A DNA stretch of 64,000 bases from an uncultured Gammaproteobacteria bacterium (lineage in GTDB: Bacteria; Patescibacteriota; Microgenomatia; Levybacterales; UBA12049): the NCBI GenBank assembly GCA_964416505.1, contig CAYQEJ010000001.1:77774-141773 (forward strand), given 5' to 3'. The translations under genes and the position numbers were made by a program. Below the pieces are notes generated by a model. That model was not told where the DNA came from. It saw only the letters and a program-made list of their open reading frames with translations, and searched no databases. This document shows positions 5,810 to 26,238 of the stretch, in pieces. How positions within the stretch are numbered: position 1 is the stretch's first letter; each line of letters opens with the position of its first letter.

Positions 5810-7105
5810 GTGAATTTAATTCTTGTCATTTTAGGAAAACTTTTCATAACTACCTCACAAATTTTTAATCTTGGGAATGGCTCCACATGGCCGGGTCATA
5901 TAGCTTTAAGCACAAATCCAAAATTCATAAAAGAATCTTTAAAAAAAACAAAAACAAAAATTATTTTGGTCGCTGGTACTAATGGAAAAACCACTACAGG
6001 TGCTCTAATTTCACACATATTTCTTGGAAATAACAAATCAGTGATTCACAATTCCTCAGGAGCAAATCTTTTAAATGGATTAGCTTCAGCGATTATTTCA
6101 TCCTATAACATTAGCTTCGCAAGGCCAGGCCTTGCGAGGCTAGATGCAGATTATTTAGTATTTGAAGTTGATGAAAATGCACTTCCAAAAGTTTTAGAAA
6201 ATTTAACTCCAAATTACGTTATTTGCTTAAACCTTTTTAGAGACCAATTGGATAGATATGGAGAAATTGATTCGATATCAAGGAGATGGAAAGAAGCATT
6301 TAGAAAAATAGATGATAGGACAACGCTTATCTTAAACGCAGATGATCCACAAATCTCCTATCTTGGAAAAGATACAAATGCAAAAATAAAATATTTTGGA
6401 CTTGACGAAAAAGGAATTGATGTAACAAAACATGGTGCTGACTCTATTTACTGTCCCAAATGCTCTACCAAGTTAAACTACGAAAAAGTGTTTTATTCTC
6501 ACTTGGGAATTTGGAATTGTCCAAATTGCAAAATTAAAAGACCATCTCCTGAAAATATAGAAATTTCCTCAAATCCCCTTCCAGGAATTCATAACAAATA
6601 CAATCTTCAAGCGGCTATTACTGTCGCTCTTTCTGAAAACACAAGTCAAATCTTAATTAATGACGCATTAAATAAATTTACTCCAGCATTTGGAAGAGGC
6701 GAAAAGATTGTTTATAAAGGGAAAACGATTCAATTATTCTTATCAAAAAACCCAACAAGCTTTAATCAGAGTCTTGATACTATTAAGGATTTGGGTGGAA
6801 AAAACATTATGTTTATCTTAAACGACGCGATTCCCGATGGAAAAGATATAAGCTGGATTTGGGATATTAATCTGGAAGAAATCCTTACAAAGGACATGAA
6901 CATAGGTGTAACTGGTAACAGAATGCTGGATATGAGTCTAAGAATTAAATATAGTGAATTTTTTGCACATCATAATACGAATACACAAATCCTATTAGAC
7001 AATATGGTAAATTCTTTAGATTCAGACGAAACTCTTTATATTCTCCCAAACTACTCAGCAATGCTCGATATTAGAAAAATTCTAACAGGCAAAAAAATCT
7101 TATGA
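5810..7105 (+). CDS. murT: Lipid II isoglutaminyl synthase subunit MurT (Mur-ligase-like, with Cys4 zinc ribbon and DUF1727)
   Basis: Mur ligase P-loop VAGTNGKTTT. Cys4 ribbon CPKCSTKLNYEKVFYSHLGIWNCPNCKIKRP, equivalent to the S. aureus MurT ribbon. The stop overlaps the gatD start (ATGA). Contains an in-frame copy of the palindromic repeat at 6102-6143. Confidence 0.8.
   Translation: MNLILVILGKLFITTSQIFNLGNGSTWPGHIALSTNPKFIKESLKKTKTKIILVAGTNGKTTTGALISHIFLGNNKSVIHNSSGANLLNGLASAIISSYNISFARPGLARLDADYLVFEVDENALPKVLENLTPNYVICLNLFRDQLDRYGEIDSISRRWKEAFRKIDDRTTLILNADDPQISYLGKDTNAKIKYFGLDEKGIDVTKHGADSIYCPKCSTKLNYEKVFYSHLGIWNCPNCKIKRPSPENIEISSNPLPGIHNKYNLQAAITVALSENTSQILINDALNKFTPAFGRGEKIVYKGKTIQLFLSKNPTSFNQSLDTIKDLGGKNIMFILNDAIPDGKDISWIWDINLEEILTKDMNIGVTGNRMLDMSLRIKYSEFFAHHNTNTQILLDNMVNSLDSDETLYILPNYSAMLDIRKILTGKKIL
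6102..6143. repeat. Palindromic GC-rich repeat copy R1 (CCTATAACA-TTAGCTTCGCAAGGCCAGGCCTTGCGAGGCTAG), in-frame inside murT
   Basis: Near-perfect inverted repeat TAGCTTCGCAAGGCC-A-GGCCTTGCGAGGCTA read directly from the sequence. Encodes ...SYNISFARPGLARLDA..., about 10 aa more than staphylococcal MurT has in the equivalent loop. Confidence 0.8.
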
Positions 7106-7833
7106 AACAGAAATTGACAATTGGTTGGTTATATCCCGAGCTGATGAATATTTATGGTGACCGGGGAAATATCATAGCTTTAGTTAAACGCTCTACTTGG
7201 AGACAAATAAAAACTGAGGTAGAAAATTTAAATCCTGGTTTTTCAGATGATGCTTTAAGAAAATGCGACATTCTGATTATGGGAGGAGCTCAAGATAAGC
7301 AGCAGTCTATTGTTAACGAAGATCTTAAAAAGCATCATAAAACTCTCTCAGAAATGATAGATGAAGGAACTCCTGGACTTTTTGTATGCGGTGGATTCCA
7401 GTTTTTAGGAAACTATTATAAAGAAGCTGATGGTACGATTATCGATGGGCTTGGAATATTCGACCTTAACACCCAAAACCCTGGCCAAGAAAGCGGAAGA
7501 CTAATTGGAAATATAATAATTGAGCCTCTTGTTACTGGCCTTTCTAAACCTATTGTTGGGTTTGAAAATCATGGAGGAAGAACTGTACTTGGAGCAAACA
7601 TCAAACCATTTGGGAAAGTTTTAAAAGGTCATGGAAATAATGATGATGGTTTCGAAGGAGCTATTTATAAAAATAGCTTTGGAACATACATGCATGGTCC
7701 AATTTTACCAAAGAATCCTGAGCTTACTGATTTATTAATCAAACTTTCTCTTAAAGCAGAAGAGCTCCTACCACTTGATGATAAAATTGAGAATCAAGCA
7801 AATGAATTTATTCAAAAACTTTTGATTAAATAG
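7102..7833 (+). CDS. gatD: Lipid II isoglutaminyl synthase glutaminase subunit GatD (CobB/CobQ-type glutamine amidotransferase)
   Basis: N-terminus LTIGWLYPELMNIYGDRGN and catalytic Cys in VCGGFQFLG, plus MHGP near the C-terminus, are the GatD/CobQ-GATase signature. Translationally coupled to murT. Confidence 0.8.
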   Translation: MKQKLTIGWLYPELMNIYGDRGNIIALVKRSTWRQIKTEVENLNPGFSDDALRKCDILIMGGAQDKQQSIVNEDLKKHHKTLSEMIDEGTPGLFVCGGFQFLGNYYKEADGTIIDGLGIFDLNTQNPGQESGRLIGNIIIEPLVTGLSKPIVGFENHGGRTVLGANIKPFGKVLKGHGNNDDGFEGAIYKNSFGTYMHGPILPKNPELTDLLIKLSLKAEELLPLDDKIENQANEFIQKLLIK

Positions 7834-7871
7834 AGATTGAATAGCCTCGAGACATAGAATATAATTACCTC

Positions 7872-8156
7872 ATGAAGTTTGATATAAAACACGTAGCCAA
7901 ATTGGCAAATCTCTCTCTTTCAGACGAAGAAGAAAAAAAATTCTCCGCTCAACTTGAAGAAACAGTAAGCTACATTGAGGGATTGAATGAAGTAGATACA
8001 AATGGTGTCTCCCCTACATCACAGGTTACAGGACTTGAAAATATAACCCGTGAAGACGAAGTTACTCAATCACTTTCTCAAGAAGAAGCACTTTCAAATG
8101 CCAAGTCTACCCATAATGGGTTTTTCAGAGTTAAAGGAATATTAAATAATGAATAA
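7872..8156 (+). CDS. gatC: Asp/Glu-tRNA(Asn/Gln) amidotransferase subunit C
   Basis: 94-aa protein. MKFDIKHVAKLANLSLSDEEEKKFSAQLEETVSYIEGLNEVDTNGVSPTSQV matches the GatC family. Confidence 0.8.
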   Translation: MKFDIKHVAKLANLSLSDEEEKKFSAQLEETVSYIEGLNEVDTNGVSPTSQVTGLENITREDEVTQSLSQEEALSNAKSTHNGFFRVKGILNNE

Positions 8157-8766
8157 CCTTACCACATTTTACCTTGTAAGGCATGGTGAAACCGAAGACA
8201 ACGTTAATCACATAATTCAAGGTCAAACAGACTCCCCTCTTACGGAAAATGGGATTGAGGAAATAAAAAAAGTTGCGAAAAAACTTAAAGGAGTAAAATT
8301 TGATCTAGCTTTTTCTTCAGATCTTTTGAGAGCTAAAAGGACTGCAGAAATAATTGCTTTAGAGCACAAACTGGAAGTTACAACATCAGAAATAATAAGG
8401 GAAAGAAACTTTGGAGAGTTTGAAAAGAGACCCAATACTGAATATGCAGAAAAAGTAAATTCCTTACTAGATAAACTCTCAGATGAAGAGAGACGATCAT
8501 TTGATAAATTTGGCATGGAAAGCGAAAATAGTTTAGTAGAAAGATTAACTACTTTTATTAGAGAAGTTGCCGTCGCAAATCCTGGAAAAAAAGTATTAGT
8601 CGTAGCACACGGCGCCATAATAAGATATTTCTTAATCAGATTAGGAGTCGGCGATTATAAAACATTTAGAGGATCGAGCATCAAAAACGTGGGATTTGTA
8701 AAAATTGAATCTGACGGAACTGATTTTTTTGTAAAAGAATTAAGCGGAATACAATTCGTGAATTAA
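8149..8766 (+). CDS. Histidine phosphatase family protein (phosphoglycerate mutase-like)
   Basis: N-terminal catalytic RHG motif (YLVRHGETEDN) and AHGAIIRYF near the C-terminus. Overlaps the gatC stop by 8 nt and lies inside the gatC-A-B operon. Confidence 0.75.
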   Translation: MNNLTTFYLVRHGETEDNVNHIIQGQTDSPLTENGIEEIKKVAKKLKGVKFDLAFSSDLLRAKRTAEIIALEHKLEVTTSEIIRERNFGEFEKRPNTEYAEKVNSLLDKLSDEERRSFDKFGMESENSLVERLTTFIREVAVANPGKKVLVVAHGAIIRYFLIRLGVGDYKTFRGSSIKNVGFVKIESDGTDFFVKELSGIQFVN

Positions 8767-8767
8767 T

Positions 8768-10201
8768 ATGCTAAATAAACTTACCATAAAGAAAGCACAA
8801 GAAGGACTTAAAAATAAAGATTTTTCCTCAGTTGAGCTCGTAAAAGCTTGTTTCGATCAAATTAAAAAGACGAACAATAAATTAAATGTTTTTATTACTC
8901 TTACTGAAGAAGAAGCACTGAAATCTGCAAAAGAAGCCGATAGTGAGATAGCCTCGCAAGGCCAGGCCTTGGAGGCTAGGCCTTTATTGGGAATCCCTAT
9001 TGCGCTAAAAGATATGTTTAATGCAAAAGGAATAAAAACTACTGCCGGATCAAATGTTCTAAGTGATTATTTTTCCTCATATGATTCCACAGTAGTAAAA
9101 AAGCTGAAAGACGCAGGTGCTGTTATAATCGGAAAAACCAATCAGGATGCCTGGGCTCATGGATCAAGCGGAGAAAATTCAGACTTCAAACCTACTAAGA
9201 ATCCATGGAATTTAGACTATGTACCAGGTGGCTCAAGTAGCGGATCAGCTGCTGCTGTTGCATCAAATATGTCTCTCGCTTCTACTGGAACAGATACAGG
9301 AGGCTCAATTAGGCTCCCTGCAAGCTTTACAAATACCGTAGGTTTAAAACCGACGTATGGAAGAGTCTCTAGGTATGGAATAGTAGCAATGGCATCATCT
9401 CATGATTCAATTGGACATTTTACAAAAACTGTCGAAGACTCAGCGATATTTCTTGAAGCTACTGCTGGCCATGATCCACATGACGCCACAACTTCATCAA
9501 AACAAGTTCCGAATTACACAAAATCTTTAAGCAAGGAAGTTAAAGGAATGAAAATAGGATTTCATTCAGATTTTTTTGACAAAGATATAGACAAAGAGAT
9601 TGGCGAAAATTATAAGGAAACTGTGGAAAAACTTAAAGAATTAGGCGCTGAAATGGTGGATTTGCCTTCCATTTATTCAAATAATTTTGTATCAGCATAT
9701 TACATAATTCAACCTGCAGAAGTATCCTCAAACCTTGCAAGATATGACGGAATTAGGTTTGGATTATCTAGACAGAATTTTGGAGAAGAAGCAAAAAGAA
9801 GAATAATGCTTGGGACTTACGTTCTTTCATCAGGATATTATGATCAATATTATAATAAGGCTTCAAAAATCCGATCCAAACTTATAAACGATTTAGGTAA
9901 AGAATATTTTGAAAAGGTTTCAGCTGTTGTTGTCCCGACTTCTCCCACTCCTCCATGGAAGCTCGGAGAAAAAACAGATGATCCTTTAAAGATGTATCTT
10001 TCAGATGTTTTCACTGTCATAGCAAATCTGGCAGGAATTCCTGGCCTCTCAGTCCCGACTGGATTTATGAAAAATAACTTACCAATTGGCATGCAAATCC
10101 TTGGTCCACAGTTCTCTGAAGAAACACTTTTCCAAATTGGATACAACCTTGAACAGGCAACACAAAATGAAGAATGGAGAAAAAAGGAGCCAGAGCTATG
10201 A
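8768..10201 (+). CDS. gatA: Glu-tRNA(Gln)/Asp-tRNA(Asn) amidotransferase subunit A (amidase signature family)
   Basis: Amidase signature [13 protein letters not shown], Ser-cisSer-Lys catalytic context, full-length 477 aa. Contains an in-frame copy of the palindromic repeat at 8948-8982. Confidence 0.9.
8948..8982. repeat. Palindromic GC-rich repeat copy R2 (ATAGCCTCGCAAGGCCAGGCCTTGGAGGCTAGGCC), in-frame inside gatA
   Basis: Same core CGCAAGGCCAGGCCTTG with inverted arms AGCCTC/GAGGCT. Encodes [11 protein letters not shown] in a variable N-terminal segment of GatA. GC-rich island in AT-rich coding context. Confidence 0.75.
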
Positions 10202-11517
10202 AATATACACCAGTTATCGGGCTTGAAGTACATGTTGAACTAAAAACAAAATCCAAAATGTTTTGCGGTTGTTCCGCTGATTACTTTGGACAAAAACCAA
10301 ACACCCACACATGTCCTGTATGTCTTGGTCTTCCAGGTGCGCTTCCTGTACCAAATAAAAAAGCCATAGAATGGTGCATTATGATTGGACTTGCGTTAGG
10401 TTGCGAGATCAACAAATTTTCTAAATTCGACAGAAAAAATTATTTTTACCCAGACTTATCAAAAGGTTACCAAATTTCCCAATATGATCTGCCTTTTGCC
10501 ATTAACGGCGAAATGAAGCTATCCAGTGGAAAAATAGTAAAAATCAGACGTGTTCACATGGAAGAAGATACAGGAAAACTTTCGCACGAAACAATAGATG
10601 GCGAAAAAGTTTCCCTGATTGACTTTAACAGATCTGGAGTTCCTTTAGTTGAGATAGTTACTGAACCTGACTTCGATAATCCTGAAGACGTAAAAGAATA
10701 CCTTCAGCGTCTTCAGCAAATAGTTAGATATTTAGAAGTTTCAGATGCAGACATGGAAAAAGGAAATATGAGGCTCGAGCCAAATATTTCCCTAAGGAAA
10801 GATGGACAAACTGATTTACCACCATATAAAGTTGAGGTTAAAAATATTAATTCTTTCAATTTTGTAGTTAAAGCTATCGAATCGGAAGTCAAAAGACAAT
10901 CTGAAATTCTAGATAAAGGAGAAATACCAGCACAAGAAACCAGAGGATATGTTGAAGCAACTTCTTCTACAGTCTCACAAAGATCTAAAGAGGACGCACA
11001 GGATTATAGATATTTCCCTGATCCTGATATTCCTCCAATTAGACTTAGCGATGAAAACATTGAAACATTAAAATGCGAAATGCCTGAACTACCGGATGAA
11101 AAAATAAAAAGATTTATGGAAGTTTATGCATTAAGTGAATATGATGCTCAAATCTTAACCAAAGACAAACTAACAGCTGAATTCTTCGACAAATCAGCAA
11201 ATTTGGCACAAGAACAAAACATGAAGAGAAAAGAATTAGCAAATTATATTATTAATAAAAAGCCAGATTTAAATAAAATTTCACCCGAAGAGCTTCTAAA
11301 GATAGTTAGCGCAGCAAATAAGATTTCTGATATTGATGAAGATAAATTGAATGAAATAATTGATAAAGTTTTAGGTGAAAATGCTAAAGCTGTTGAGGAC
11401 TTCAAATCAGGAAAAGAAACAGTTATAATGTTTTTAGTAGGCGCTGTAATGCGTCAGTTCCCTGAAAAAATAGACGCAGGGAAAGTCAAGGCGAGTTTAC
11501 TCGCGAAATTAAAATAA
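10198..11517 (+). CDS. gatB: Glu-tRNA(Gln)/Asp-tRNA(Asn) amidotransferase subunit B
   Basis: [26 protein letters not shown]-terminus is diagnostic. ATG at 10198 is preceded by AAGGAG and overlaps the gatA stop (ATGA). Confidence 0.9.
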
Positions 11518-11518
11518 T

Positions 11519-12358
11519 ATGCCAGACGGATCACCTGCTCCAACAGAAACAAAACCACCACAGAGTGAAACACAACCTATAGATCCAGCCCCAAAAGCTG
11601 AAGTTCCCAGAGTTGTGACCCCATTGAGCCAGATGCCAGAAGGAACCACCATTCCAAAAAAAACAAAAGTTCAGAAAGCAAAGCTTCAAGAGTCAAGAGC
11701 AAAACTTGAGGAAGCACAAAGATTATCTATGTATGATCAAGTAACTGGTCTTCACAACAATCGTTGGTTTGAAGAAAGGGTAGGAAATGCTATAAAAGCC
11801 TCTGAGAGAAGCGGAAAAGGTTTTTATGTTATGTTTATGGATCTAGATAAATTTAAAGATTACAATTCAAGATATGCCCATGCTGGCGGAGACAAAATCT
11901 TAAGACTTTTAAGAAGCATAAGAACAAGACCAGGAGAAGATATCGCTAGATATGGAGGAGATGAATTCGCTCAGGTTTTAAACGACGATATTTCACTAGA
12001 AGAAGCTGTAAAGGTGTCGTTAAGAAATTCAAATACTGTGGAAAGTGAAAGTAGAAATGTTATCCCCCAGATGGCAATTGTAAACGCTGATACAGCCCCT
12101 ATAGATCACGTAACCATGTCTTTAGGATTATTGGAATGTAATAGTCAAATGACATATGAACAAATCAAAGAAAGAGCCAGCGCTACAATGCTTGCAGGAA
12201 AAAACAGTGGTAGAGATTTAATTACAGTTTCAACATTGGATGGGAAAACAAAGATGTTCACAAGGGATGGAAAGGAATATATTCCGCCTGAACAACGAGG
12301 AAAACTTTATAGATTAATCGCCCCAGTTCAAAGATTATTAGGAAGAAAGGCAGCATAA
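11519..12358 (+). CDS. GGDEF-domain protein (putative diguanylate cyclase) with Pro/Thr/Glu-rich N-terminal tail
   Basis: GGDEF active-site motif RYGGDEFAQV, upstream DQVTGLHNNRWF and FMDLDKFKDYN substrate/metal-binding elements. No TM segments. Confidence 0.7.
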   Translation: MPDGSPAPTETKPPQSETQPIDPAPKAEVPRVVTPLSQMPEGTTIPKKTKVQKAKLQESRAKLEEAQRLSMYDQVTGLHNNRWFEERVGNAIKASERSGKGFYVMFMDLDKFKDYNSRYAHAGGDKILRLLRSIRTRPGEDIARYGGDEFAQVLNDDISLEEAVKVSLRNSNTVESESRNVIPQMAIVNADTAPIDHVTMSLGLLECNSQMTYEQIKERASATMLAGKNSGRDLITVSTLDGKTKMFTRDGKEYIPPEQRGKLYRLIAPVQRLLGRKAA

Positions 12359-15300
12359 TGGCAGATTTCGTACACCTTCACAATCATTCTGAATATTCTC
12401 TTTTAGATGGCCTCTCAAAAAACGTAGAAATGGTAGCTCAAGCAAAGAGCTTAGGAATGAAAGCTCTAGCGATAACTGATCACGGGAATTTATATGGAGC
12501 TATAAAGTTTTATAAGGCATGCAAGGAAGCAGGAATAAAACCAATAATAGGCTGCGAAATATATATGGCCAAGCGCACAAGACACGACAAAGAAGCTGGT
12601 AAGGATTCTGATTCAAATCATTTAATTTTGCTTGCTAAAAATGACACTGGCTACAAGAATCTTATGAAAATCATATCAGTTGCTCATTTAGAAGGATATT
12701 ATTACAAACCTCGCGCAGATATTGATCTACTTAGAGAAAATAGCGAGGGTTTGATTTGTCTAAGCGCATGCGTAAATGGATATATTTCTGAGCCCCTACT
12801 CAACAATCAGAATGAAACAGCGGAAAAAAGAGCCATGGAGCTTTCAGAAATATTCGGAAAAGATGGCTTCTATCTTGAGATTCAGAAACATTTAAATGTA
12901 AAAGATCAAGACGAATTAAATCCAAAACTCATCGAACTTTCACAAAAATTAGGTATCCCCCTTGTTGCTACAAATGACAATCACTATGTAAAAAACGGCG
13001 ATGCAGAAGCTCAAGAAGTTTTACTATGTATACAAACACAATCTACTCTAACTACTCCAAATAGAAAACTTTCAATGATTGACTCTCCTGATTTTTACAT
13101 GAAGTCACCAGAAGAAATGACAGGTCTTTTTATACAAACTCCTGAAGCAGTGGAAAACAGTGTAAAAATTGCAGAAATGTGCGATTTAGAAATTCAGCTT
13201 GGAAAATGGATCATGCCTATTTTTGATGTGCCCGATAAATCCTCTTCTGGAGATTATCTTACAAAATTGGTTTATGAAGGTTTGGAAAGAAGATATGGAA
13301 AAATAACTGATGAAATCAAACAAAGAGCAGATTATGAACTTTCTATTATTCTAAAAAAGAAATATGAAACATACTTTCTCATCGTTGCCGATTTTGTAAA
13401 TTGGGCAAAATCTCATGGTATTAGCGTTGGTCCTGGAAGAGGGTCAGCTGCTGGCTCCGTGGTTTCATTTGCTCTAAGCATAACCGATATTGACCCTTTC
13501 TTCTTTAATCTTCCTTTCGAAAGATTTTTAAACCCTGATAGACCATCTGCTCCTGATATAGATCTTGATTTTGCAGATACTAGACGAGACGAAGTAATTG
13601 AATATGTGACTCAAAAATATGGAAAAGATAAAGTTGCACAAATCATCACTTTTGGAACAATGGAAGCAAGAGGTTCAGTTAGAGATACAGGAAGAGTTAT
13701 GGGTCTTCCATATTCCGCTCCTGATAGAATCTCAAAAATGATTCCACCTGGCTGGCAGGGACACGCTATGACCTTGGATAACGCACTTGAGCAAAGCCCT
13801 GAGCTAAAAATGGCATATACTACAGAAGCCGAGACCAAAAGACTCTTGGATTTAGCCAAAAGAGTTGAAGGCGTAGCCAGACATGCTTCAGTTCATGCTG
13901 CAGGAGTAGTTATAGCTGACAAACCGATCACGCAATATACTCCCCTTCAAAAAGAAAGTAATGGAGACAAAATTATTACTCAGTATGATATGTATACTGT
14001 TGGTGAAGACGGAGTTGGACTTTTAAAAATGGACTTCTTGGGTCTTAGAAATCTGACAATTATCGAAGAGACTCTAAATTTTATAAAAACCAATAGAAAT
14101 GTAGAGATAGATCTTTCAACTCTTCCAGTAGATGATAAAAAAACTTATGATCTTTTATCCGATGCAGAAACCACAGGAATATTTCAACTTGAATCCGCAG
14201 GCATGAGAAGGTATATAAAAGATCTAAAACCTACTTCAATTTTTGATCTTATGGCAATGGTTGCTTTATATCGACCAGGTCCAATGGCCAATATTCCCGA
14301 ATTCATTGAAAGGAAAAGAGACTCATCAAAAATCTCCCTTCCCGACCCAAGACTAAAAGATGCATTAGCACAATCCTATGGAATGCTTGTGTATCAAGAT
14401 GATGTTTTGCTCACAACAATTGCTATAGCTGGATATACCTGGCTAGATGCTGATAAATTCCGCAAGGCGATGGGTAAAAAAATTCCGGCAGAAATGAAAA
14501 AACAAAAAGAACAATTTATCAAAGGCTCGATCGCCAACGGCTTACCCAAGAAAAAAGCAGAAGATATTTATAATCTGATTGCTCCATTTGCAGGATATGG
14601 ATTTAATAAAGCTCATGCAGCGTGCTACGCGACAATTGCATATAGAACTGGGTATCTAAAGGCTAACTACCCAGTTGAGTTCATGACTGCTCTTCTAACA
14701 GCAGAGTCTCGCGGTACAACTGGCCCAGTTAAAAATGAGAAAATTGCACAAGCTATTGCAGAATGTAAAAGATTAAAACTTGTTGTTCTTCCACCAGACA
14801 TAAATAAATCTGGAAAAGATTTTACGATTGAGGAAGGAGAAAAAATCAGATTCGGTCTTTCAGCTATAAAAAATGTCGGTGAAGCAGCCATCAAGAATAT
14901 AATCGAAAACAGAAATAAAGGCGAATTCAAAAGCTTTGAAGATTTTTGCAGACGCGTAGATCTTTCAACTATAAATAAAAAAACTATCGAAAGTCTTATA
15001 AAGGCAGGAGGAATGGATATTTTTGGGAATAGAGCACATCTTCTTTCAATTTATGCAAACATAGTTGAAAATATTCATAAATCAAAAAAAAGCACACTTG
15101 AAGGACAAACAAGCTTATTTGGAGAAGCAGAACCCGAAAAAGAAATTCAAAAAATGACTTCTACTGTAGAAGATTTTTCTTCTCATGAAAAATTGGCGTT
15201 TGAAAAAGAATTTCTGGGCTTTTATTTAACATCTCATCCGCAAATGAACAATTTACTGGCACTCCGATCTATAGTTAGCCACGATATTGCAGTTCTAGAA

Positions 15301-16670: not shown

Positions 16671-16682
16671 GTTTAAAGCATT

Positions 16683-17186
16683 ATGGAATTATTAAAAGAT
16701 TTTGGGTTTGATCCCATTCTTTTAACAGCGCAGATTATTAATTTTTTAATAGTCTTAGTTGTTCTAAAGAAATTCATGTATAAGCCAGTTCTTGATATGC
16801 TTAAAAAGCGCGAGAACGAAATCAAAAAGGGTTTAAAGGATTCAGAAGAATCTCAAAAACTTCTAGTTGATGCTGAGGAAAAAGAGAAGAAAATTCTTCA
16901 GAAGGCTAGAAATGAAGCTGATCAAATGATAGCAGCTGCGAAAAAAGAAGCTGATGACTTAAAAAATGACACTCTAGAAAAGACAAGATTAGAGGCAGAG
17001 AAAATTCTAGAACAAGCAAGATCTACTATTGCCCAGGAAACAAAAATAGCTGAAGATAATCTTACAAAGAAAATAGGTCAAATTGCTGTAGCTCTTCTTG
17101 AAAAATCATTAGTTGGGTTATTTGGGGAAAAAGAACAAAAAGAAATAATGAAAAAGGCAACAGCTCAAATTCAAAGAAAAAGCTAA
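16683..17186 (+). CDS. atpF: F0F1 ATP synthase subunit b
   Basis: Single N-terminal TM followed by a long charged coiled coil (E/K/A-rich). Position between atpE and atpH. Confidence 0.8.
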   Translation: MELLKDFGFDPILLTAQIINFLIVLVVLKKFMYKPVLDMLKKRENEIKKGLKDSEESQKLLVDAEEKEKKILQKARNEADQMIAAAKKEADDLKNDTLEKTRLEAEKILEQARSTIAQETKIAEDNLTKKIGQIAVALLEKSLVGLFGEKEQKEIMKKATAQIQRKS

Positions 17187-17187
17187 T

Positions 17188-17541
17188 ATGAAAAAAGTTT
17201 TAATTAAAAAATTAGCAGATGAAAGTTTTAATAAAAATAACTTGGATGAAAAAAAAGTAGCAAGAATAGCGAAGGCATTGAAAAGAGAGGACCTAAAAGT
17301 GTATATTAAAGACCTAAAAAACATAGAAGCGAAAAATACTGTAAAAGTAACTATTCCTGCATCACGCGGAATATCAGAAATGAAAGCTTACTTTTCAAAG
17401 ATTTATCCAAATAAAAAGATAGTTGTCCAGGTAGATGATTCGCTTTTGACAGGAATAAAGGTAGTGGACTATGACAATGTTTATGAATTATCATTAAAAG
17501 GACTTTTGGAAAGCGCAATAAAAGGATATACAAATGATTGA
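17188..17541 (+). CDS. atpH: F0F1 ATP synthase subunit delta (OSCP), unusually short
   Basis: Position between atpF and atpA, with a C-terminal ...VDDSLLTGIKVVDYDNVYELSLKGLL delta-like region. Only 117 aa versus ~180 typical. Confidence 0.6.
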   Translation: MKKVLIKKLADESFNKNNLDEKKVARIAKALKREDLKVYIKDLKNIEAKNTVKVTIPASRGISEMKAYFSKIYPNKKIVVQVDDSLLTGIKVVDYDNVYELSLKGLLESAIKGYTND

Positions 17542-19060
17542 CGAAAAAAATATTATTGATTCATTAGAAAAAAACTTAATGACTTGGGGAAAAGATCCCA
17601 AGACTCATAACGTAGGGATTGTAGAAAAAAATACTGATGGAGTTATTGTCGCATCTGGACTATCTCAAGCAACTATGGGAGAGATGGTTAAGTTTGAAAA
17701 CGGAGTCTCTGGAGTAGTTCTAAATCTGGATGAAGATTATGTCTCTATAATTCTCTTAGGAGATGGAAGCGAGATCAAAGAAGGAGACAGAGTCAGAAGA
17801 ACCGAAGAAATGCTTTCCATTAATGCATCTGAAGACTTACTAGGCCGCGTTATCAATCCAATAGGAGATCCACTCGATGGAAAGCCAGCCATCAAAAAAG
17901 GGAAACTTATGCCTCTAGAGCATATCGCTCCAGGAGTAGTTGAAAGAGAAAAAGTTAATACTCCACTCAAGACTGGAATTAAAGCAATTGATGCTATGTT
18001 CCCAATTGGAAGAGGACAACGTCAACTTATTATTGGAGACAGAGGTCTTGGAAAAACTGCAATTGCAATTGACACAATAATCAATCAAAAAGAATTTAGA
18101 AAAAAAGATTCAAAGCTTAAGCCAGTGATTTGTATTTACGTAGCAATAGGGCAAAAACGTTCAACAATTGCTCAAATCATAGGAAAACTTCAAGAAACTG
18201 AAGCAATTGAATATTCAATTGTGGTTGCTGCATCTTCATCTGATCCAGCAGCACAACAATATCTTGCTCCTTATGCAGGCGCTGCAATCTCAGAATATTT
18301 CTTAGAAAAAGGACAAGATGTTTTGATTGTTTATGATGATCTTACTAAGCATGCGTGGGCATATAGACAAATATCATTGGTTCTTAAGCGCCCAGCTGGT
18401 CGCGAAGCTTATCCAGGAGACGTTTTCTATCTTCACTCTCGCCTACTTGAAAGAGCAGTGAGACTAAACGCTGAAAATGGCGGAGGAAGCGTAACAGCTC
18501 TTCCAGTAATCGAAACACAAGCAAATGATATCTCAGCATATATTCCAACAAATGTTATCTCAATTACTGATGGACAAATATTTTTACAATCTGATTTATT
18601 CAATTCTGGATTCAGACCAGCTATTAATACAGGAACGTCAGTTTCCCGTGTGGGAGGAGATGCACAAACAGGAGCAATGAAATCAGTCGCAGGAAAAATG
18701 AAACTTGAGCTTGCACAATTCGCAGAACTCGCAGCATTCTCTCAATTCGGTTCTGAACTTGATGCTGCGACTGCTCAGGCTTTAGAAAGAGGTAAAAGAA
18801 CCCAGGAAATGCTTAAACAAGGACAATACCAACCATTGAATGAAACATTTGAAATTTTAAGCATATGGTCTGTTACAAATGGATATCTAGACAATGTTCC
18901 ATTAACAGATGTGGGTAGATTTGAAAGAGAACTTCATGCTTTTGTTAAAAGAAGCAATCCAAAACTTCTTACACTTCTAGCAAGTGGAGAAAAAGTAAAA
19001 GAAGAAGCAACAAAAGAACTCGAAAAAACATTAAAAGATTTCAAGAAAGTTTTCAAATAA
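17534..19060 (+). CDS. atpA: F0F1 ATP synthase subunit alpha
   Basis: Walker A GDRGLGKT; conserved alpha motifs (REAYPGDVFYLHSRLLERA). Confidence 0.95.
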   Translation: MIDEKNIIDSLEKNLMTWGKDPKTHNVGIVEKNTDGVIVASGLSQATMGEMVKFENGVSGVVLNLDEDYVSIILLGDGSEIKEGDRVRRTEEMLSINASEDLLGRVINPIGDPLDGKPAIKKGKLMPLEHIAPGVVEREKVNTPLKTGIKAIDAMFPIGRGQRQLIIGDRGLGKTAIAIDTIINQKEFRKKDSKLKPVICIYVAIGQKRSTIAQIIGKLQETEAIEYSIVVAASSSDPAAQQYLAPYAGAAISEYFLEKGQDVLIVYDDLTKHAWAYRQISLVLKRPAGREAYPGDVFYLHSRLLERAVRLNAENGGGSVTALPVIETQANDISAYIPTNVISITDGQIFLQSDLFNSGFRPAINTGTSVSRVGGDAQTGAMKSVAGKMKLELAQFAELAAFSQFGSELDAATAQALERGKRTQEMLKQGQYQPLNETFEILSIWSVTNGYLDNVPLTDVGRFERELHAFVKRSNPKLLTLLASGEKVKEEATKELEKTLKDFKKVFK

Positions 19061-21305
<2,245 letters not shown>

Positions 21306-21309
21306 ACTT

Positions 21310-21723
21310 ATGAAACTCACAGTTGATGTCCTTACTCCCCAAGCACAGATTTATACTGGCGAAGCAGATGAAATATTAGTTCCTACCGTAAATGGACAAT
21401 TAGGAATTCTCCCAAATCACGTTTCCCTTTTTACAAAAATCGAACCTGGGGAGCTTGAAATCAAAAACTCGGGAAAATCTCACTACGTTGCTATCATGGG
21501 AGGATATCTTGAAGTGAATAAAAATAAAGTAAATGTACTTGGAGACTATGCGGTTAGAGCTGAAGATATAGAAATTGCAAAGGTAGAACAAGCCAAAGCT
21601 AAAGCTGAAAAGATGAAACAGGAAAAAATATCTATTGAAGATCTTACCAGTATCGAAGCTGATCTTCGCAGATCAATTTTACAATTGAAAGTTGCTAATC
21701 GCCGCAGATCTTCCAGAAGTTAA
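21310..21723 (+). CDS. atpC: F0F1 ATP synthase subunit epsilon
   Basis: 137 aa with an N-terminal beta-sandwich and C-terminal helical hairpin. Last gene of the operon, followed by a repeat/terminator-like hairpin. Confidence 0.85.
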   Translation: MKLTVDVLTPQAQIYTGEADEILVPTVNGQLGILPNHVSLFTKIEPGELEIKNSGKSHYVAIMGGYLEVNKNKVNVLGDYAVRAEDIEIAKVEQAKAKAEKMKQEKISIEDLTSIEADLRRSILQLKVANRRRSSRS

Positions 21724-21724
21724 T

Positions 21725-21760
21725 CCTATAACTTTAGCCTCCCAAGGCCAGGCCTTTTCT
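21725..21760. repeat. Palindromic repeat copy R3 (CCTATAACTTTAGCCTCCCAAGGCCAGGCCTT followed by a T-run), intergenic 3' of atpC
   Basis: Shares CCTATAAC and TTAGCCTC.CAAGGCCAGGCCTT with the other copies. The right arm is replaced by TTTTCT, giving a hairpin plus U-tract. Confidence 0.75.
21725..21760 (+). terminator. Putative intrinsic terminator of the atp operon, formed by repeat R3
   Basis: Stem CCCAAGG/CCTT(GG) around loop CCAGG, immediately followed by TTTTCT, 2 nt after the atpC stop. Confidence 0.35.
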
Positions 21761-21775
21761 GACTCTTTCAATAAA

Positions 21776-23410
21776 TTAGTATTGAAGACCGCCAGCAGGA
21801 GTTGATTGTGGGTCTAAATTACTATTCCCTATCCCTCTAATTCTAATTATTCTTTTCATCATCTGATCTACTATCACACTGTCGCGAGTCCATGCTTGAA
21901 GAGTACTAGATATTCTTAATGCAAATAAATCTCTTACCAGTGGATTCTGAAAACTTGTTCCGTGTCTTTCTAAAACAAAATCCATAATAGATGTATCCAT
22001 AAAACCTGCGAGTGTTTTAACGGCTTTAAATCTCCCATCAGGAAGAGTAGTAGTGCATTCTTTTTCATAGCTAACTAACATACTATAAAAAAGACGATCG
22101 TATTCTATATTTATACCTGGAGCTGATTTATTAATAAGATTATCCATCCATTCTAAAATCGGCGCGTTGAAATATTCGTGATCAATTAACATTTTAAGCT
22201 CTCCAATAAGACCCGCTGAATGCTTCGGGTCTATCTTTTCAGGATCGATTCCTCCAAGATAATTTGTTATTAATGTATGTATATATTTTTGATTTAACAG
22301 ATCTGCCTGTACACGATCTATTCCTAATACTTCATAAAACCCTCTTAATTTCAAAACCGAAGAACCCTTAATTAACTGATCTATATCATGGTAATAATCC
22401 ATTGGAGCAACCTCATCCTCCATTCCTAAAGCTTCACCAGATACACTATCTAAATCATAGATGCTTCCTACCGTAGAAATGTTACCTTGATGCGGAAATC
22501 CATGAGTTATCCCATTCATATGCATCCTCGCAAAATATCTACCCACCTTAGTGGGTACATATGTTCCTAAAAAACGAAATATATCATCCATCTTTTCAAT
22601 ATCAAAATAATCGGCTTCATATTCCGGATTCTCTTCACTTTTTAGTCTTTCATAAAAGTTTGCGTAACCAAACGCCCTGCCAATTACTTGAAGAAGTGCC
22701 TCTCTTGTTGGCTGCTCTCCTAAATCCCACATTCTCTCAGGAACCTGCATAGCTCTAACACTAAACCTATACTCTGAAGCCTTTGCAAATCCCCTTATCC
22801 TCGCAAGCTCTTCCCTACCTGCTGAATCTAATAAAAAAGGCATGTATCTTGCTAGAAAAATTCTTTTTAAATCTTTTGCGTTCCGAGTCATTGTATACTT
22901 AACTACACTATCTTTAAAATTTGGGATACTTCTTAATTTTCCCAAGTGTGGAAGTTCTAGGGGTTCGATAATTCTAGTCGTTGCTTCAGCTTCAATTCCC
23001 AGCTCTCTGAGAACTTCAGAAGCTCTTACAGTTCTTTCAAGTAAGACTGCATCCTGAAGTCCATGAGTGTCAAAATTTAAAGGCATCGCACGATTCTCAT
23101 AAATATAAGGATCACCGAGAGTATTCCCTTTCACACTGAATGCTGTAAAAAGTGTGCCATATTGATCACCCCATGCTCCTATTTCCTCCATTCCTCTTAC
23201 AACTAACTCGTAGGACCTACCATGCCTATTAGAAAGCTTATAAAGCTCCACTGGGCTTTCTTCTTTGATACTCCCGGAAATTCCTACGACATGAAGCTGA
23301 TGATCATCAAAAACAAAATCAGGAACTTCTCCTGAAGCAATTGGCACATTGACGGTTTTTGCTTTTACCGCCAAAACACTCACTCTTTCACCGTATCTGG
23401 GTCTTTCCAT
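21776..23410 (-). CDS. Hypothetical protein (~544 aa) with a degenerate protein-kinase-like/APH-like catalytic-loop motif; compositionally atypical
   Basis: Long ORF antisense to the flanking plus-strand genes. Rich in R/G/A/E, unlike the K/I/N-rich proteome here. Motif HGFPHQGN...YDLDS resembles the APH/choline-kinase catalytic loop HGDxHxGN...DxE but lacks the Asp. Likely start is the ATG at 23410; the ORF track uses TTG at 23422. Confidence 0.5.
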   Translation of the reverse strand: MERPRYGERVSVLAVKAKTVNVPIASGEVPDFVFDDHQLHVVGISGSIKEESPVELYKLSNRHGRSYELVVRGMEEIGAWGDQYGTLFTAFSVKGNTLGDPYIYENRAMPLNFDTHGLQDAVLLERTVRASEVLRELGIEAEATTRIIEPLELPHLGKLRSIPNFKDSVVKYTMTRNAKDLKRIFLARYMPFLLDSAGREELARIRGFAKASEYRFSVRAMQVPERMWDLGEQPTREALLQVIGRAFGYANFYERLKSEENPEYEADYFDIEKMDDIFRFLGTYVPTKVGRYFARMHMNGITHGFPHQGNISTVGSIYDLDSVSGEALGMEDEVAPMDYYHDIDQLIKGSSVLKLRGFYEVLGIDRVQADLLNQKYIHTLITNYLGGIDPEKIDPKHSAGLIGELKMLIDHEYFNAPILEWMDNLINKSAPGINIEYDRLFYSMLVSYEKECTTTLPDGRFKAVKTLAGFMDTSIMDFVLERHGTSFQNPLVRDLFALRISSTLQAWTRDSVIVDQMMKRIIRIRGIGNSNLDPQSTPAGGLQY

Positions 23411-23425
23411 AAATATAATCAAAGA

Positions 23426-23454
23426 ATTATACTATAAGATATAATCTGAAGCAA
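23426..23454 (-). promoter_or_regulatory. Sigma70-like promoter TTGCTT-N17-TATAAT for the 548-aa ORF (minus strand)
   Basis: On the minus strand: TTGCTT (plus 23449-23454), 17-nt spacer, perfect TATAAT (plus 23426-23431), about 15 nt upstream of the ATG. Predicts a near-leaderless transcript. Confidence 0.45.
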
Positions 23455-23465
23455 TTATTTCTCAG

Positions 23466-23516
23466 CCTATAACATTAGCTTCGCAAGGCCTGGCCTTGCG
23501 AAGCTAGGACTATAAG
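23466..23516. repeat. Palindromic repeat copy R4 (CCTATAACATTAGCTTCGCAAGGCCTGGCCTTGCGAAGCTAGGACTATAAG), intergenic
   Basis: Longest copy. Inverted arms TAGCTTCGCAAGGCC / GGCCTTGCGAAGCTA extend to outer TATAAC/…TATAAG ends. Lies upstream of the 548-aa minus-strand ORF, so R3 and R4 bracket that gene. Confidence 0.8.
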
Positions 23517-23582
23517 ACAATTTATTTCTAAACAGAGATATATAAGAAATGTAAGAAAACGCAATTTATATGCTTGAATTGC

Positions 23583-23611
23583 TTGAAATGTAAAAATTAC
23601 GTAAGTATACT
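23583..23611 (+). promoter_or_regulatory. Sigma70-like promoter TTGAAA-N17-TATACT upstream of the GDE-like hydrolase gene
   Basis: TTGAAA 23583-23588, 17-nt spacer, TATACT 23606-23611, about 50 nt upstream of the ATG at 23661. Confidence 0.4.
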
Positions 23612-23660
23612 ATAGGAACTCCGTTAAATTCTCTACTACAAAGCGGATCAAGGATACAAG

Positions 23661-24971
23661 ATGACATTACCAGACTTAAGAGACATAGCCTACAAATCAC
23701 TTTTGGAACTTGCAACTGACGAAGGAATTTACGCTTCCTCCAAAGAAGGAGCATTTGGATGCATTTTTGGAAGAGATTCAGCTATAACTTGCCTTAAAAT
23801 TTTAAGAGTACTCGAAACGTATAAAGGAAAAGATCAGATTGATACTTTAAGATTAAAAGCAATTGTAAGAAACTCCTTAATAAAAATAACAGCACTTCAA
23901 GGAAAAGAAGAAAACAGGGAAAGCGGAGAACAACCTGGTAAATTCATACACGAATTTAGAAAAGATAAGTACGAAAGATTAGTAAACAGACCAAAACCTT
24001 GGTACGTATATCCAGATAAGATTCTTAGAAATTACGATTCAATTGATTCTACGCCTTTGGGATTAATCGCAATTTATAACTACTGGAAAATTACAGGTGA
24101 CAAAGAATTTCTTTTGACTACCCTTCCAGCAGTCGAAAAAGGTCTTATCTGGATAAAAAATTATGGAGACATGGATGGAGACCATCTTTTAGAATATGAA
24201 CTGTCTGAAAAAAGAATTCATGGAGGATTAAGAGTTCAATCCTGGACAGATTCAGCAGAATCCCTACTATCTCCCGAAGGAATGTTTCCCCTTTACCCCA
24301 TAGCACCTGTAGAAGTACAAGGATATGCCTGGCTTGCTCTAAAACTGTGGGGAGAATTCTTCACAGAAAATCCACTCGTAGGAGATCAAACCAAATTTGC
24401 CAAAGAACTCTTAGACTTTTCAAAAAAAATAAAAAAGGCTTTTAATGAAAAATTTATTTTTCATGATGGAAATGATTTTATACCTGCACAAGCATTGGAT
24501 GGGAATAAAAACCAAATAAAGACCTTAACCGGAAATCCCTTACTTCTACTTTGGGCTACATTTCAAAATAATGGCACCAAAGAAACAATTTTAAATGATA
24601 AGTTAATACCCTATCTTGTAAAAAGGTCTTTTGAAGACGATATGTTTGATTCTGAGGGAGGAATCAGAACTATGAGCACCAGATCCATTACTTTCAATCC
24701 AAAAGTTGATTCTTATCACAATGGCAGCTTCTGGCCCAAACTGAACGGAATGGCACATGAAGGACTAGAGAAATGGGGATTTATCAAGGAAGCAGATATG
24801 CTTAGAAATGCATCAATAAAACCCATTATTTATTTTGGGTCTCCAGTAGAACTCTATATTAAAGACCAAACAGGGAAATTTATACTTTATAAGAATGCTA
24901 GAGGTCAGGAAAGCTGTAGAGTTCAGGCATGGTCAGCAGCAGCGCTTCTAGACTTTTTAAAACACGAATAA
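23661..24971 (+). CDS. (alpha/alpha)6-barrel glycoside hydrolase, GDE_C / GH63-like (amylo-alpha-1,6-glucosidase or mannosyl/glucosyl-glycerate hydrolase-like)
   Basis: 436 aa with GAFGCIFGRDSA near the N-terminus and conserved W/D/E-rich segments (YNYWKITGD, SWTDSAES, HNGSFWP) typical of six-hairpin glycosidases related to glycogen-debranching enzyme C-domains. Confidence 0.55.
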   Translation: MTLPDLRDIAYKSLLELATDEGIYASSKEGAFGCIFGRDSAITCLKILRVLETYKGKDQIDTLRLKAIVRNSLIKITALQGKEENRESGEQPGKFIHEFRKDKYERLVNRPKPWYVYPDKILRNYDSIDSTPLGLIAIYNYWKITGDKEFLLTTLPAVEKGLIWIKNYGDMDGDHLLEYELSEKRIHGGLRVQSWTDSAESLLSPEGMFPLYPIAPVEVQGYAWLALKLWGEFFTENPLVGDQTKFAKELLDFSKKIKKAFNEKFIFHDGNDFIPAQALDGNKNQIKTLTGNPLLLLWATFQNNGTKETILNDKLIPYLVKRSFEDDMFDSEGGIRTMSTRSITFNPKVDSYHNGSFWPKLNGMAHEGLEKWGFIKEADMLRNASIKPIIYFGSPVELYIKDQTGKFILYKNARGQESCRVQAWSAAALLDFLKHE

Positions 24972-25043
24972 CCTCTTATTGTTTTCTTGCTTTTTTCTCA
25001 TTTTTTTATCATTTGCCAACCTTATATTTAATCGATAAGCAAT

Positions 25044-26213
25044 ATGAGAAAACTAAAAATAGCCCAAATAGCACCAATAATCGAAAGAGTGCCTCCTAAA
25101 AAATACGGCGGGACTGAAAGAGTGGTAAGTACCTTAACTGAAGAACTAGTTAAACGAGGACATGATGTTACTCTATTTGCTTCTGGAGACTCACTTACAA
25201 AAGCAAAACTCGAATCTGTTTTCCCCATTTCTATAAGAGAGGCAAATTTAAAACGTCAAGAAGCTCTTGAATGGAGCATGCTTCATATAGGAAGAGCTTA
25301 TGATATGCAGGACAAATTCGACATAATTCACGACCACAATAGCGCCCTGGGTATGCCACTTGCCAATATCTCCACTACCCCAACAGTAGTTACTCTTCAT
25401 GGAGCCGTCAGAGAATCAACGATTAGAATGTTAAAACAGTACAGAAATCCTAACTTTGTATCCATATCGAAGGACCAGGTAAAATTTGCTGATATAGCAA
25501 AGCATACAGTAATTCCAAACGGATTAGAATTAAATGACTACGAATATTCAGGAACTAATAAAGGCTATCTTCTCTATGTTGGAAGAATATCTGAAATAAA
25601 AGGCACACACATTGCAATAAATGTAGCCCAAAGATTAGATCTGCCTTTAATTATCGCTGCAAAACTTGATGAAGCAGATAAACCTTATTTTAATAAATAT
25701 ATTAAATCAAAATTAAATAACTCAAAAATAAAATGGATTGGAGAAGTCGATAATCTTACCCGTAACAAACTCATGAGTGAAGCGATTTGTTTAGTGAATC
25801 CCATCACATGGAGAGAACCTTTTGGGCTTACTATGATTGAAGCAATGGCTTGCGGCTGTCCTGTAGTAGCTTTTAACAAAGGAGCAGTTCCTGAAGTAAT
25901 GCTAGAGGGTAAAACAGGGTTTATAGTTGAAACTATTGAAGAAATGGTAGATGCGATAAAAAAAATTGAATCCATAAAAAGAATTGAGTGTAGAAATTTC
26001 GCTCTTAAAACATTTAACGAAAAGGTTATGGTAGATAGATACGAAGAATTATATAAAAATATTGCTACAGAAAATACATTTCAAGATTACAGCAGTCTAC
26101 TTGTTTCACCTTCATTCCAAGAAATATTTCGCCCCAGAATCTGGGAATTTCAAGATTTTGAATTTAATTTCGAAACAGAGTCAAACTTAATCGCCTCAAA
26201 AGAAAAAAATTAG
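25044..26213 (+). CDS. Glycosyltransferase family 4 (GT-B fold) protein
   Basis: N-terminal KIAQIAPIIERVPPKKYGGTERVV (GT4 N-domain) and C-terminal EPFGLTMIEAMACGCPVVAF (E-x7-E region). Stop codon supplied by repeat R5. Confidence 0.8.
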   Translation: MRKLKIAQIAPIIERVPPKKYGGTERVVSTLTEELVKRGHDVTLFASGDSLTKAKLESVFPISIREANLKRQEALEWSMLHIGRAYDMQDKFDIIHDHNSALGMPLANISTTPTVVTLHGAVRESTIRMLKQYRNPNFVSISKDQVKFADIAKHTVIPNGLELNDYEYSGTNKGYLLYVGRISEIKGTHIAINVAQRLDLPLIIAAKLDEADKPYFNKYIKSKLNNSKIKWIGEVDNLTRNKLMSEAICLVNPITWREPFGLTMIEAMACGCPVVAFNKGAVPEVMLEGKTGFIVETIEEMVDAIKKIESIKRIECRNFALKTFNEKVMVDRYEELYKNIATENTFQDYSSLLVSPSFQEIFRPRIWEFQDFEFNFETESNLIASKEKN

Positions 26214-26238
26214 CCTCGCAAGGCCAGGCCTTATGAGC
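26210..26238. repeat. Palindromic repeat copy R5 (TTAGCCTCGCAAGGCCAGGCCTTATGAGCG), overlapping the stop codon of the GT4 gene
   Basis: The TAG of the TTAGCCTC arm (26211-26213) is the stop codon of CDS 25044-26213. The right arm is degenerate. Confidence 0.7.

Follow-up and report, generated by a model that had tools for sequence, protein, structure and literature searches.

The stretch analyzed here (64,000 nucleotides, positions 77,774 to 141,773 of contig CAYQEJ010000001.1 of assembly GCA_964416505.1; referred to as the window) contains five copies of a short GC-rich palindrome, which we interpret as repetitive extragenic palindrome (REP)-type elements paired with a Y1 HUH transposase resembling the REP-associated tyrosine transposases (RAYTs) and widespread in Microgenomates (Levybacteria, Gottesmanbacteria, Daviesbacteria, and relatives). 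We put the probability of this reading at about 85%. Directly supported are a hairpin-forming repeat family, a RAYT-like gene matched to it by palindrome variant, and frame-filtered survival of copies inside genes. A preliminary description of this DNA had proposed a mobile, selfish family, akin to REPs and Rickettsia palindromic elements (RPEs), that tolerates in-frame insertion; the copies in multiple genomes and the bracketed Y1 HUH gene in relatives lend support to that proposal.

The consensus of the repeat is a perfect 31-nt palindrome, TAGCYTCGCAAGGCCWGGCCTTGCGARGCTA. Its 14-nt core, CAAGGCCWGGCCTT, gave 10 strand matches in the 64-kb window (0.28 expected; 0 of 100 shuffles reached 10), and a profile made from 80 perfect copies in other genomes recovered exactly the five copies, all between 6.1 and 26.3 kb, where they had been placed before. 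Of the four occurrences of an outer motif, CCTATAAC, in the window, three precede copies 1, 3, and 4 on the 5' side with constant spacing. The repeat unit measures 31 nt, can reach ~55 nt where outer arms are included, and has a 14- to 15-bp stem. The copies and the genes they touch are as follows.

6102-6142: REP copy 1, in-frame in murT; CCTATAAC at 6102-6109 and the 31-nt palindrome TAGCTTCGCAAGGCCAGGCCTTGCGAGGCTA at 6112-6142
8949-8978: REP copy 2, in-frame in gatA; 30-nt palindrome TAGCCTCGCAAGGCCAGGCCTTG-GAGGCTA
21725-21756: REP copy 3, half element; CCTATAAC, left arm, and core (TAGCCTCCCAAGGCCAGGCCTT), right arm missing
23466-23516: REP copy 4, complete long form; outer arms CCTATAAC and CTATAAG, perfect 31-nt palindrome at 23476-23506
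26211-~26254: REP copy 5, asymmetric subtype; TAGCCTCGCAAGGCCAGGCCTT + ATGAGCGTA + AATAACTATGAAG
5810-7105 (+): murT, lipid II isoglutaminyl synthase subunit, host of copy 1; Pfam Mur_ligase_M and MurT_C
8768-10201 (+): gatA, amidotransferase subunit A, host of copy 2; Pfam Amidase, 471 bits; PDB GatA 4WJ3, E 1.7e-132
25044-26213 (+): gene of a GT4-family glycosyltransferase with its stop codon from copy 5; Pfam Glycos_transf_1 and Glyco_transf_4

Copy 1 encodes SYN-ISFARPGLARL, and the corresponding segment of the MurT open reading frame (ORF), 5810-7105, is SYNISFARPGLARLDA. The right arm of copy 2 has a 1-nt deletion (TTG-GAGGCTA), by which the reading frame escapes the element's own in-frame TAG; the orthologue in L074 (L numbers denote collected loci) has the same gatA copy with the identical deletion. 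Copy 3 starts directly after the atpC stop codon (21721-21723), between the convergent ends of atpC and the ORF at 21776-23422 (-), and copy 4 occupies the intergenic space that separates two divergent ORFs, 21776-23422 (-) and 23661-24971 (+). The ORF that copies 3 and 4 flank, at its 3' end and upstream of its start, respectively, encodes 548 residues without a Pfam match. The asymmetric form of the palindrome is GCGTGCGTA; copy 5, whose first three bases (TAG, 26211-26213) serve as the GT4 stop codon, matches the palindrome 3' of the RAYT gene of L048 (TAGCCTCGCAAGGCCAGGCCTTGCGTGCGTAAATAACTATGAG) as well as copies found in L029 and L101. These positions agree with the earlier assignment of two copies to murT and gatA in-frame and three to intergenic DNA, one of them donating the TAG of the GT4 gene. 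Some details of that assignment had to be corrected: copy 2 carries the deletion, copy 3 is a half element, and copy 5 extends beyond 26238, where it had been ended. Copies 2, 3, and 5 show decay.

Upon folding as DNA, copies 1, 2, and 4 gave stable hairpins (-12 to -17 kcal/mol; z, -3.6 to -6.4). Copy 1 reached -15.3 kcal/mol (z, -6.35), copy 2 folded with one bulge at -12.4 kcal/mol, and the 15-bp stem of copy 4 gave -17 kcal/mol as DNA and -26.8 kcal/mol as RNA. No significant hairpin was found for copies 3 and 5 in this folding test (z, ~-1.3), so the ~13-bp hairpin previously attributed to every copy holds for copies 1, 2, and 4 only. Among all loci there were two main arm variants, AGCTTCGC..GCGAAGCT and AGCCTCGC..GCGAGGCT, in which both arms were altered together, and there were rarer compensated variants (TTCC..GGAA in L189, TTCAC..GTGAA and TTCAAAAGGAAsTTCC in L104, and TTTGCA..TGCAAA in L194). 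In a set of 15 variants, which was picked by hand and therefore leans towards pairing, 10 of the 14 stem pairs were changed on both sides and 91% of the cells could pair, a level that none of 500 shuffles reached. In low-GC genomes the element was longer, with the outer arms CCTATAR...YTATAGG.

The association with a transposase emerged from locus L189, which had been collected by gene and contains a Pfam Y1_Tnp gene. A tblastn search of all collected loci with its protein added 11 genes of this kind, every one in a locus that had been chosen for the palindrome only. In L014, L027, L048, L063, L064, L080, L104a, and L193, the palindrome stands on both sides of the gene within ~10 to 75 nt; in L051, it lies upstream of and inside the gene; and in L103, L104b, L012, and L189, a different palindrome, particular to that gene, encloses it. 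In L193 (genome CAZMGC), which was found via the protein, perfect C-type palindromes are located ~50 nt before the likely start (MPAK) and 4 nt after the stop codon. CAZMGC is the closest available relative of the window (MurT 71% identical) and shares its murT and gatA copies. L194, likewise found via the protein, has the same bracketing with another compensated variant. Locus L104 carries two different RAYT genes within 8 kb, at 1274-1993 (-) and 5899-6612 (+), each bracketed by its own variant (TAGCTTCACAAGGCCTGTCCTTGTGAAGCTA and AGCTTCAAAAGGAAsTTCCTTTTGAAGCT). In L189, the RAYT-like gene (20083-20727) lies between dnaE and atpB and is flanked by a different hairpin, TTGACACCCTTGGGGTGGA; murT and gatA of L189 nonetheless hold the TTCC/GGAA variant of the main palindrome. 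A Y1 HUH gene bracketed by the palindrome is the arrangement of a REP/RAYT locus ("REPtron") and thus supports the REP-like reading.

The encoded proteins scored above the Pfam Y1_Tnp threshold in all eight cases tested (35 to 51 bits versus 23) and contain HUH (HFH) and RYIHxNP motifs. Their sole NCBIfam match was NF047646 (REP_Tyr_transpos, REP-associated tyrosine transposase), which they reached with 31 to 63 bits, short of the equivalog cut-off of 80. Of 7,267 candidates, 7,155 scored at E <= 1e-10, so the family is a large one, and some members are labeled "transposase [Candidatus Levybacteria]" in their source records. Of the 120 best homologue clusters (90% protein clusters), almost every one was confined to one or two contigs. 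Many of the homologues P0244 to P0353 were alone on contigs of 0.8 to 2 kb, as is expected of RAYT genes whose flanking repeats break assemblies.

The preliminary description had called for a search for copies beyond the five. We scanned species-representative genomes in 8-kb tiles with AGCYTCSCAAGGCCWGGCCTT; the counts are lower bounds. The palindrome was present in at least 104 tiles from at least 34 assemblies, which, among the matches listed, were nearly all Patescibacteria/Microgenomates (Levybacteria, Gottesmanbacteria, Daviesbacteria, and "Patescibacteria group"). Host G+C content ranged from 33% to 56%, and the palindrome sequence was nearly identical throughout. The relative CAZMGC alone had it in at least 15 separate tiles, and loci collected by gene rather than by motif contained 0 to 2 copies per 21 kb. 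In all, 187 core matches (with up to 2 mismatches; some by chance) were read in the loci collected. A metagenome scan with the MurT alignment returned three moderately close loci (L106 to L108), none with the palindrome; the peptide patterns used were too general. Many "binchicken" metagenome-assembled genomes titled uncultured Gammaproteobacteria (e.g., L074, CAZMGC010000024.1) show Levybacteria-like synteny of murT, gatD, and gatCAB and carry the Patescibacteria repeat, and their titles are probably wrong.

We assessed the placement of copies relative to genes with crude ORF calls (at least 90 amino acids) in a loose and a strict set of copies. In the loose set, 63 of 149 copies were intragenic, and in the strict set 31 of 82 (38 to 42%), versus a coding fraction of 72 to 89% under the same calls. 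This corresponds to an approximately 2-fold depletion from genes and is yet far from "extragenic." Twenty-eight strict copies lay in ORFs of at least 200 amino acids. The 31 strict intragenic copies were read as (S)[F/L]ARPGLA[K/R](L) in 22 cases and as (L)ASQG[Q/L]ALR[S/G] in 8, the two frames that avoid the terminal TAG of the element; in the single copy in the third frame, the terminal TAG was now CAG. Upon inspection of the 91 non-intragenic copies, 54 were within 60 nt of the 3' end of a gene, and in 12 of these further cases the TAG of the element was the stop codon.

Several RAYT genes are themselves hosts, with an in-frame copy of their own variant palindrome directly after the catalytic RYIHxNP/KQAL motif. 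The internal copy was of the main type in L051, L063, L014, and L064 (decayed in L064), and of the gene's own variant in L103 (GCTCAAGGGCGGGCCTTGAGC) and L012 (CAAAAGGTTAAACCTTTT); in each case it matched the variant of the flanking copies. An ASQGQAL-type peptide was present at this site in 28 of the 120 best homologues. As in MurT and GatA, intact, decayed, and empty versions of this one site were seen. The net length gain was +24 nt, and the native protein has KQAL next to the inserted ASQGQAL. We know of no report of RAYT genes that hold in-frame copies of their own palindrome. The coordinates of RAYT genes with an internal copy are as follows.

L051, 6546-7304
L063, 300-1007
L014, 4093-4812
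L103, 805-1419 (-)
L012, 5272-5970 (-)

Filled and empty versions of the same site could be compared in the two host genes of the window, as orthologues with and without the segment, the latter of which the preliminary description had sought, were found for MurT and GatA. MurT of the window is full length (orthologues 53 to 71% identical), as is GatA, and the domains of both are intact. The MurT segment is 10 residues longer than in Staphylococcus aureus MurT, as the ~10 residues named earlier for staphylococcal MurT had implied, 8 longer than in Streptococcus pneumoniae MurT, and 6 to 7 longer than in the nearest orthologues lacking the element, a net gain of 18 to 21 nt. In 120 MurT orthologues, the empty 21-residue state occurred throughout the tree and the 27- to 28-residue REP state was seen, either intact or decayed, at six or more places; decay by internal deletion was seen in P0004 to P0006. 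P0019 MurT contains a perfect palindrome, while its eight nearest relatives (72 to 80% identity) are all empty and it is only ~60% identical to window MurT, which indicates that the element entered the same murT codon position more than once. The empty site reads AAT CTT AGC / GGA AAG TTA in L191 and the filled site AAC CTT AGC / CTC GCA AGG CCT GGC CTT / GCG AGG CTA in L049, so that only 18 nt were added and the ends of the element overlay native codons. In the window and L074, CCTATAAC takes the place of 9 nt upstream of the murT copy with the length unchanged.

At the gatA site, 30 of 118 orthologues had a 34-residue baseline (ADELIKNGQDLPLLGIP) and 55 had a REP-type segment of 37 to 38 residues, mostly decayed. 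The net gain was 3 to 4 residues (9 to 12 nt), and 4 residues relative to Pseudomonas aeruginosa GatA. Clean indels of 30 to 45 nt, as anticipated earlier, were thus found in neither gene. The LASQGQAL encoded by the element takes the position of LIKNGQDL in native GatA. The copies in both murT and gatA were of the C type in the window and L074 and of the TTCC/GGAA type in L189, where the 1-nt deletion in gatA is at another position than in the window. Sixteen of the 118 orthologues (e.g., L187 4972-5580; P0144, P0162, P0164, P0165, and P0167) had an unrelated 39-residue segment (..LNNGTIEQxNNYP..), which may be another inserted sequence. A few (P0228, P0174, P0192, P0218, and P0171) had 46 to 48 residues with duplicated or interrupted REP-derived peptides (e.g., LASQGLASQGDALQGDAL), a pattern that suggests slippage or secondary insertion within the copy. 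Between gatC and gatA of the window lies a His_Phos_1 (phosphoglycerate mutase-like) gene (8149-8766), and the same order was found in L186 to L190.

A location in surface loops had been expected for both peptides. In the AlphaFold model of MurT (mean predicted local distance difference test score [pLDDT], 86.7), the segment is placed between helix 88-98 and strand 115-120 and its 10-residue block averages 59, which supports its location in a loop that is presumably surface exposed. For GatA (mean pLDDT of the model, 73.9), the segment is predicted to comprise the last part of helix 47-63 and, after a turn, a short helix at 67-70, so a simple loop is supported for MurT and not for GatA.

By analogy with TnpA(REP) of Escherichia coli and with IS200/IS605, the hairpin would be bound and cut by RAYT on single-stranded DNA, and RAYT may spread the copies in trans, homogenize them, or both. 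Gene-borne copies would persist only in loops that can accommodate 3 to 10 additional residues, and only with an uninterrupted frame. The gatA copy with its 1-nt deletion and the third-frame copies that end in CAG instead of TAG could be examples of how the frame is kept. Copies just 3' of genes could take over the stop codon. Several observations weigh against a REP/RAYT assignment. The NCBIfam RAYT match remains under its curated cut-off (31 to 63 bits versus 80), and tblastn detected no RAYT gene in the 64-kb window, the copies of which are either mobilized from elsewhere in the genome or relics. The classical 5' tag GTAG or CGTC is absent from the listed copies, in which G before TAG is rare, and the ends of the palindrome are (T/C)AGC and GCT(A/G). 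Most copies are single perfect palindromes and not doublets of the REPIN type (a few tandem or adjacent pairs occur in L004, L020, and L090), and over a third are intragenic, whereas classical REPs are extragenic. Finally, the net gains (murT, +18/21 nt; gatA, +9/12 nt; RAYT, +24 nt) are smaller than the 31-nt element, unlike simple cut-and-paste or peel-and-paste insertion. What we describe is probably a REP/RAYT system of Patescibacteria with four departures from the classical form: a near-perfect, unusually conserved palindrome, no GTAG/CGTC tag, a high intragenic fraction, and self-insertion into RAYT. A literature search (motif string; palindromic repeats in Microgenomates/Patescibacteria; RAYT together with Candidate Phyla Radiation [CPR]) yielded no prior description.

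The short net gains, the repeated gain at one site, the variant-matched orthologous copies, and the 9-nt replacement by CCTATAAC, none of them expected from simple transposition, raise the question of how the copies are written. Their spread and uniformity might be due mainly to homology-guided copying (ectopic gene conversion or template switching) rather than RAYT-catalyzed transposition, with sites that mimic the ends of the element (TTAGC ... G.GA.G.TA) converted to palindromes and RAYT at most an initiating nickase; we consider this possible and rather doubtful. It would fit with gains below element length and ends that overlay native codons (empty L191 versus filled L049), with the likeness of native LIKNGQDL to LASQGQAL in GatA and the native KQAL beside ASQGQAL in RAYT, with the independent gain at one murT codon in P0019, with the variant of the own genome in orthologous murT and gatA copies (C type in the window and L074, TTCC/GGAA in L189), and with the replacement of 9 nt by CCTATAAC at unchanged length upstream of the murT copy (window and L074). 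The case is, however, based on three genes, and the likeness of short loops to element ends may be due to chance or to an effect of alignment. Insertion followed by deletion gives the same pattern, and decay by internal deletion was indeed seen (P0004 to P0006); moreover, the association with RAYT is unexplained if the enzyme plays no part. A combination, in which RAYT-triggered homology-guided copying writes REPs into sites resembling element ends, coding sequence included, and the same process keeps the variant of a genome uniform, would explain the repeated murT gain, the short net gains, the variant-matched orthologous copies, and the in-frame copy in RAYT. We put it forward tentatively, as a proposal with more doubt than confidence behind it. 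If true, it would amount to a homing-like, concerted-evolution mode of REP propagation that acts on essential proteins of a minimal genome.

It is unlikely that the hairpins are functional RNA or DNA signals of the host (3'-end stabilizers, terminators, or protein-binding sites) that are under selection, with the transposase link secondary. The 54 of 91 non-intragenic copies near gene 3' ends and a sequence that is nearly identical from 33% to 56% GC are in line with such a role, and REPs elsewhere are mostly downstream of ORFs, with RNA-level roles suggested (Di Nocera et al. 2013, PMC3733652). Runs of T after the hairpin were rare, however; terminator-like sites in the 21- to 27-kb region were at background (5 versus 3.8 +/- 2.2), and the only such match on a copy was on the strand without a gene ending upstream. 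A terminator would be harmful at the sites of the 38 to 42% of copies in ORFs, and copies decay freely in many lineages. No Rfam family matched at gathering level in the window, the only match at E <= 1 around copy 4 being RF02612 (19.6 bits versus a gathering threshold of 216). Intrinsic terminators as such were rejected, as T-runs of at least 4 were present in a minority of copies and the scan was at background with its one match on the wrong strand. Patescibacteria are thought to be naturally competent, and a signal of the DNA uptake type, kept by biased uptake and recombination like the DNA uptake sequence (DUS) of Neisseria or the uptake signal sequence (USS) of Haemophilus, would account for the existence of variants, for positions being conserved among orthologues, and for the bias in reading frame. 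Genome-specific variants at orthologous sites and a gatA motif gained with little change in length are compatible with it. Its density is far too low (5 per 64 kb in the window and 0 to 2 per 21 kb in loci collected by gene, where DUS/USS reach ~1 per kb), the palindrome is perfect and 31 nt long whereas the DUS core is asymmetric with 9 to 12 nt, and the specific bracketing of a transposase gene would be unexplained, all of which makes this reading highly improbable. A MITE (a miniature transposable element bounded by inverted repeats) with TA duplication was likewise discarded, since the terminal TA is part of the palindrome and filled versus empty murT sites show no duplication; no direct repeats flanking the element were found in the listed copies when read by eye. 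Readings, from the sequence alone, as CRISPR, parS/dif-like sites, or restriction sites (GGCC, CCWGG, and AGGCCT are present) were dropped because the copies are dispersed and RAYT linked.

In the rest of the window, we noted a low-GC block from 28000 to 54000 (25 to 30% versus 33 to 39% in the first 28 kb), rich in glycosyltransferase, PMT_2, flippase, and carbamoyltransferase genes and without a copy of the palindrome. At ~22000 to 27000, the sign of the GC skew turns from positive to negative and the genes switch from the + to the - orientation, so that they converge. This switch has the pattern of a replication terminus, and all five palindromes are on it or just left of it.

Ultrasmall Patescibacteria are usually called poor in mobile DNA. 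The REP/RAYT-like elements described here show that they carry a selfish repeat system that looks active, alters loops in essential enzymes, and takes the place of stop codons. On the practical side, the palindromes probably break assemblies at RAYT genes. To our knowledge, the way in which REPs move has yet to be demonstrated directly, in spite of long study of REP/RAYT systems. Sites seen both before and after the gain, resolved to single codons in well-conserved genes (murT, gatA, and RAYT), together with repeated gains and genome-specific variants, make the mechanism, whether insertion or conversion, testable with comparative or population genomic data and with simple biochemistry on oligonucleotides.

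In comparison with known systems, the family resembles the REP/RAYT systems of Escherichia, Pseudomonas, and Stenotrophomonas in its short, GC-rich palindromes, dispersed in multiple copies over the loci covered and often located 3' of genes, in a Y1 HUH gene bracketed by the cognate palindrome, and in paralogues that each have their own variant (the L104 pair). It differs from them in having single near-perfect 31-nt palindromes instead of imperfect REPs in doublets, in lacking the GTAG/CGTC tag, in the 38 to 42% of copies that are intragenic, in a transposase below the NCBIfam RAYT cut-off, and in the copy of the own palindrome inside many transposase genes. Classical REPs are species specific, whereas the sequence here is near-identical across Levybacteria, Gottesmanbacteria, and Daviesbacteria. 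A conserved tag is reported for the REPs of E. coli. At one end, classical REPs have the tag GTAG or CGTC (PMC3733652). In other phyla, both REPtrons and REPs located within genes are on record (Di Nocera et al. 2013, PMC3733652), and a survey of Y1 HUH proteins makes no mention of CPR groups (PMC6006769). In Opitutus terrae and Rickettsia conorii, REP units are found in-frame in housekeeping genes, where they encode short peptides, and some are located at ORF ends; these intragenic units are a minority of the copies, and many are in DNA replication and repair genes (PMC3733652). The Patescibacteria elements differ from those in sequence family and tag, in their high intragenic fraction, and in their hosts (murT, gatA, and RAYT). 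With RPE-1 and its relatives they share the insertion of palindromic selfish DNA in-frame into essential genes of a reduced genome, Patescibacteria genomes being believed to measure ~1 Mb. RPE-1 is specific to Rickettsia, is ~100 to 150 nt long, adds 30 to 50 residues, and has no known transposase, whereas the unit here is 31 to 55 nt long, adds 3 to 10 residues, has a cognate RAYT-like gene, and resides in Patescibacteria. Lastly, the transposases belong, like those of IS200/IS605 and its palindrome-associated derivatives, to the Pfam Y1_Tnp superfamily, with hairpins at both ends of the gene. No NCBIfam model except that of RAYT matched them at E <= 0.001; the same palindrome stands on both sides of the gene, in contrast to the distinct left and right ends of IS200/IS605, and the 90% protein clusters, almost all confined to one or two contigs, would argue against a multicopy insertion sequence.

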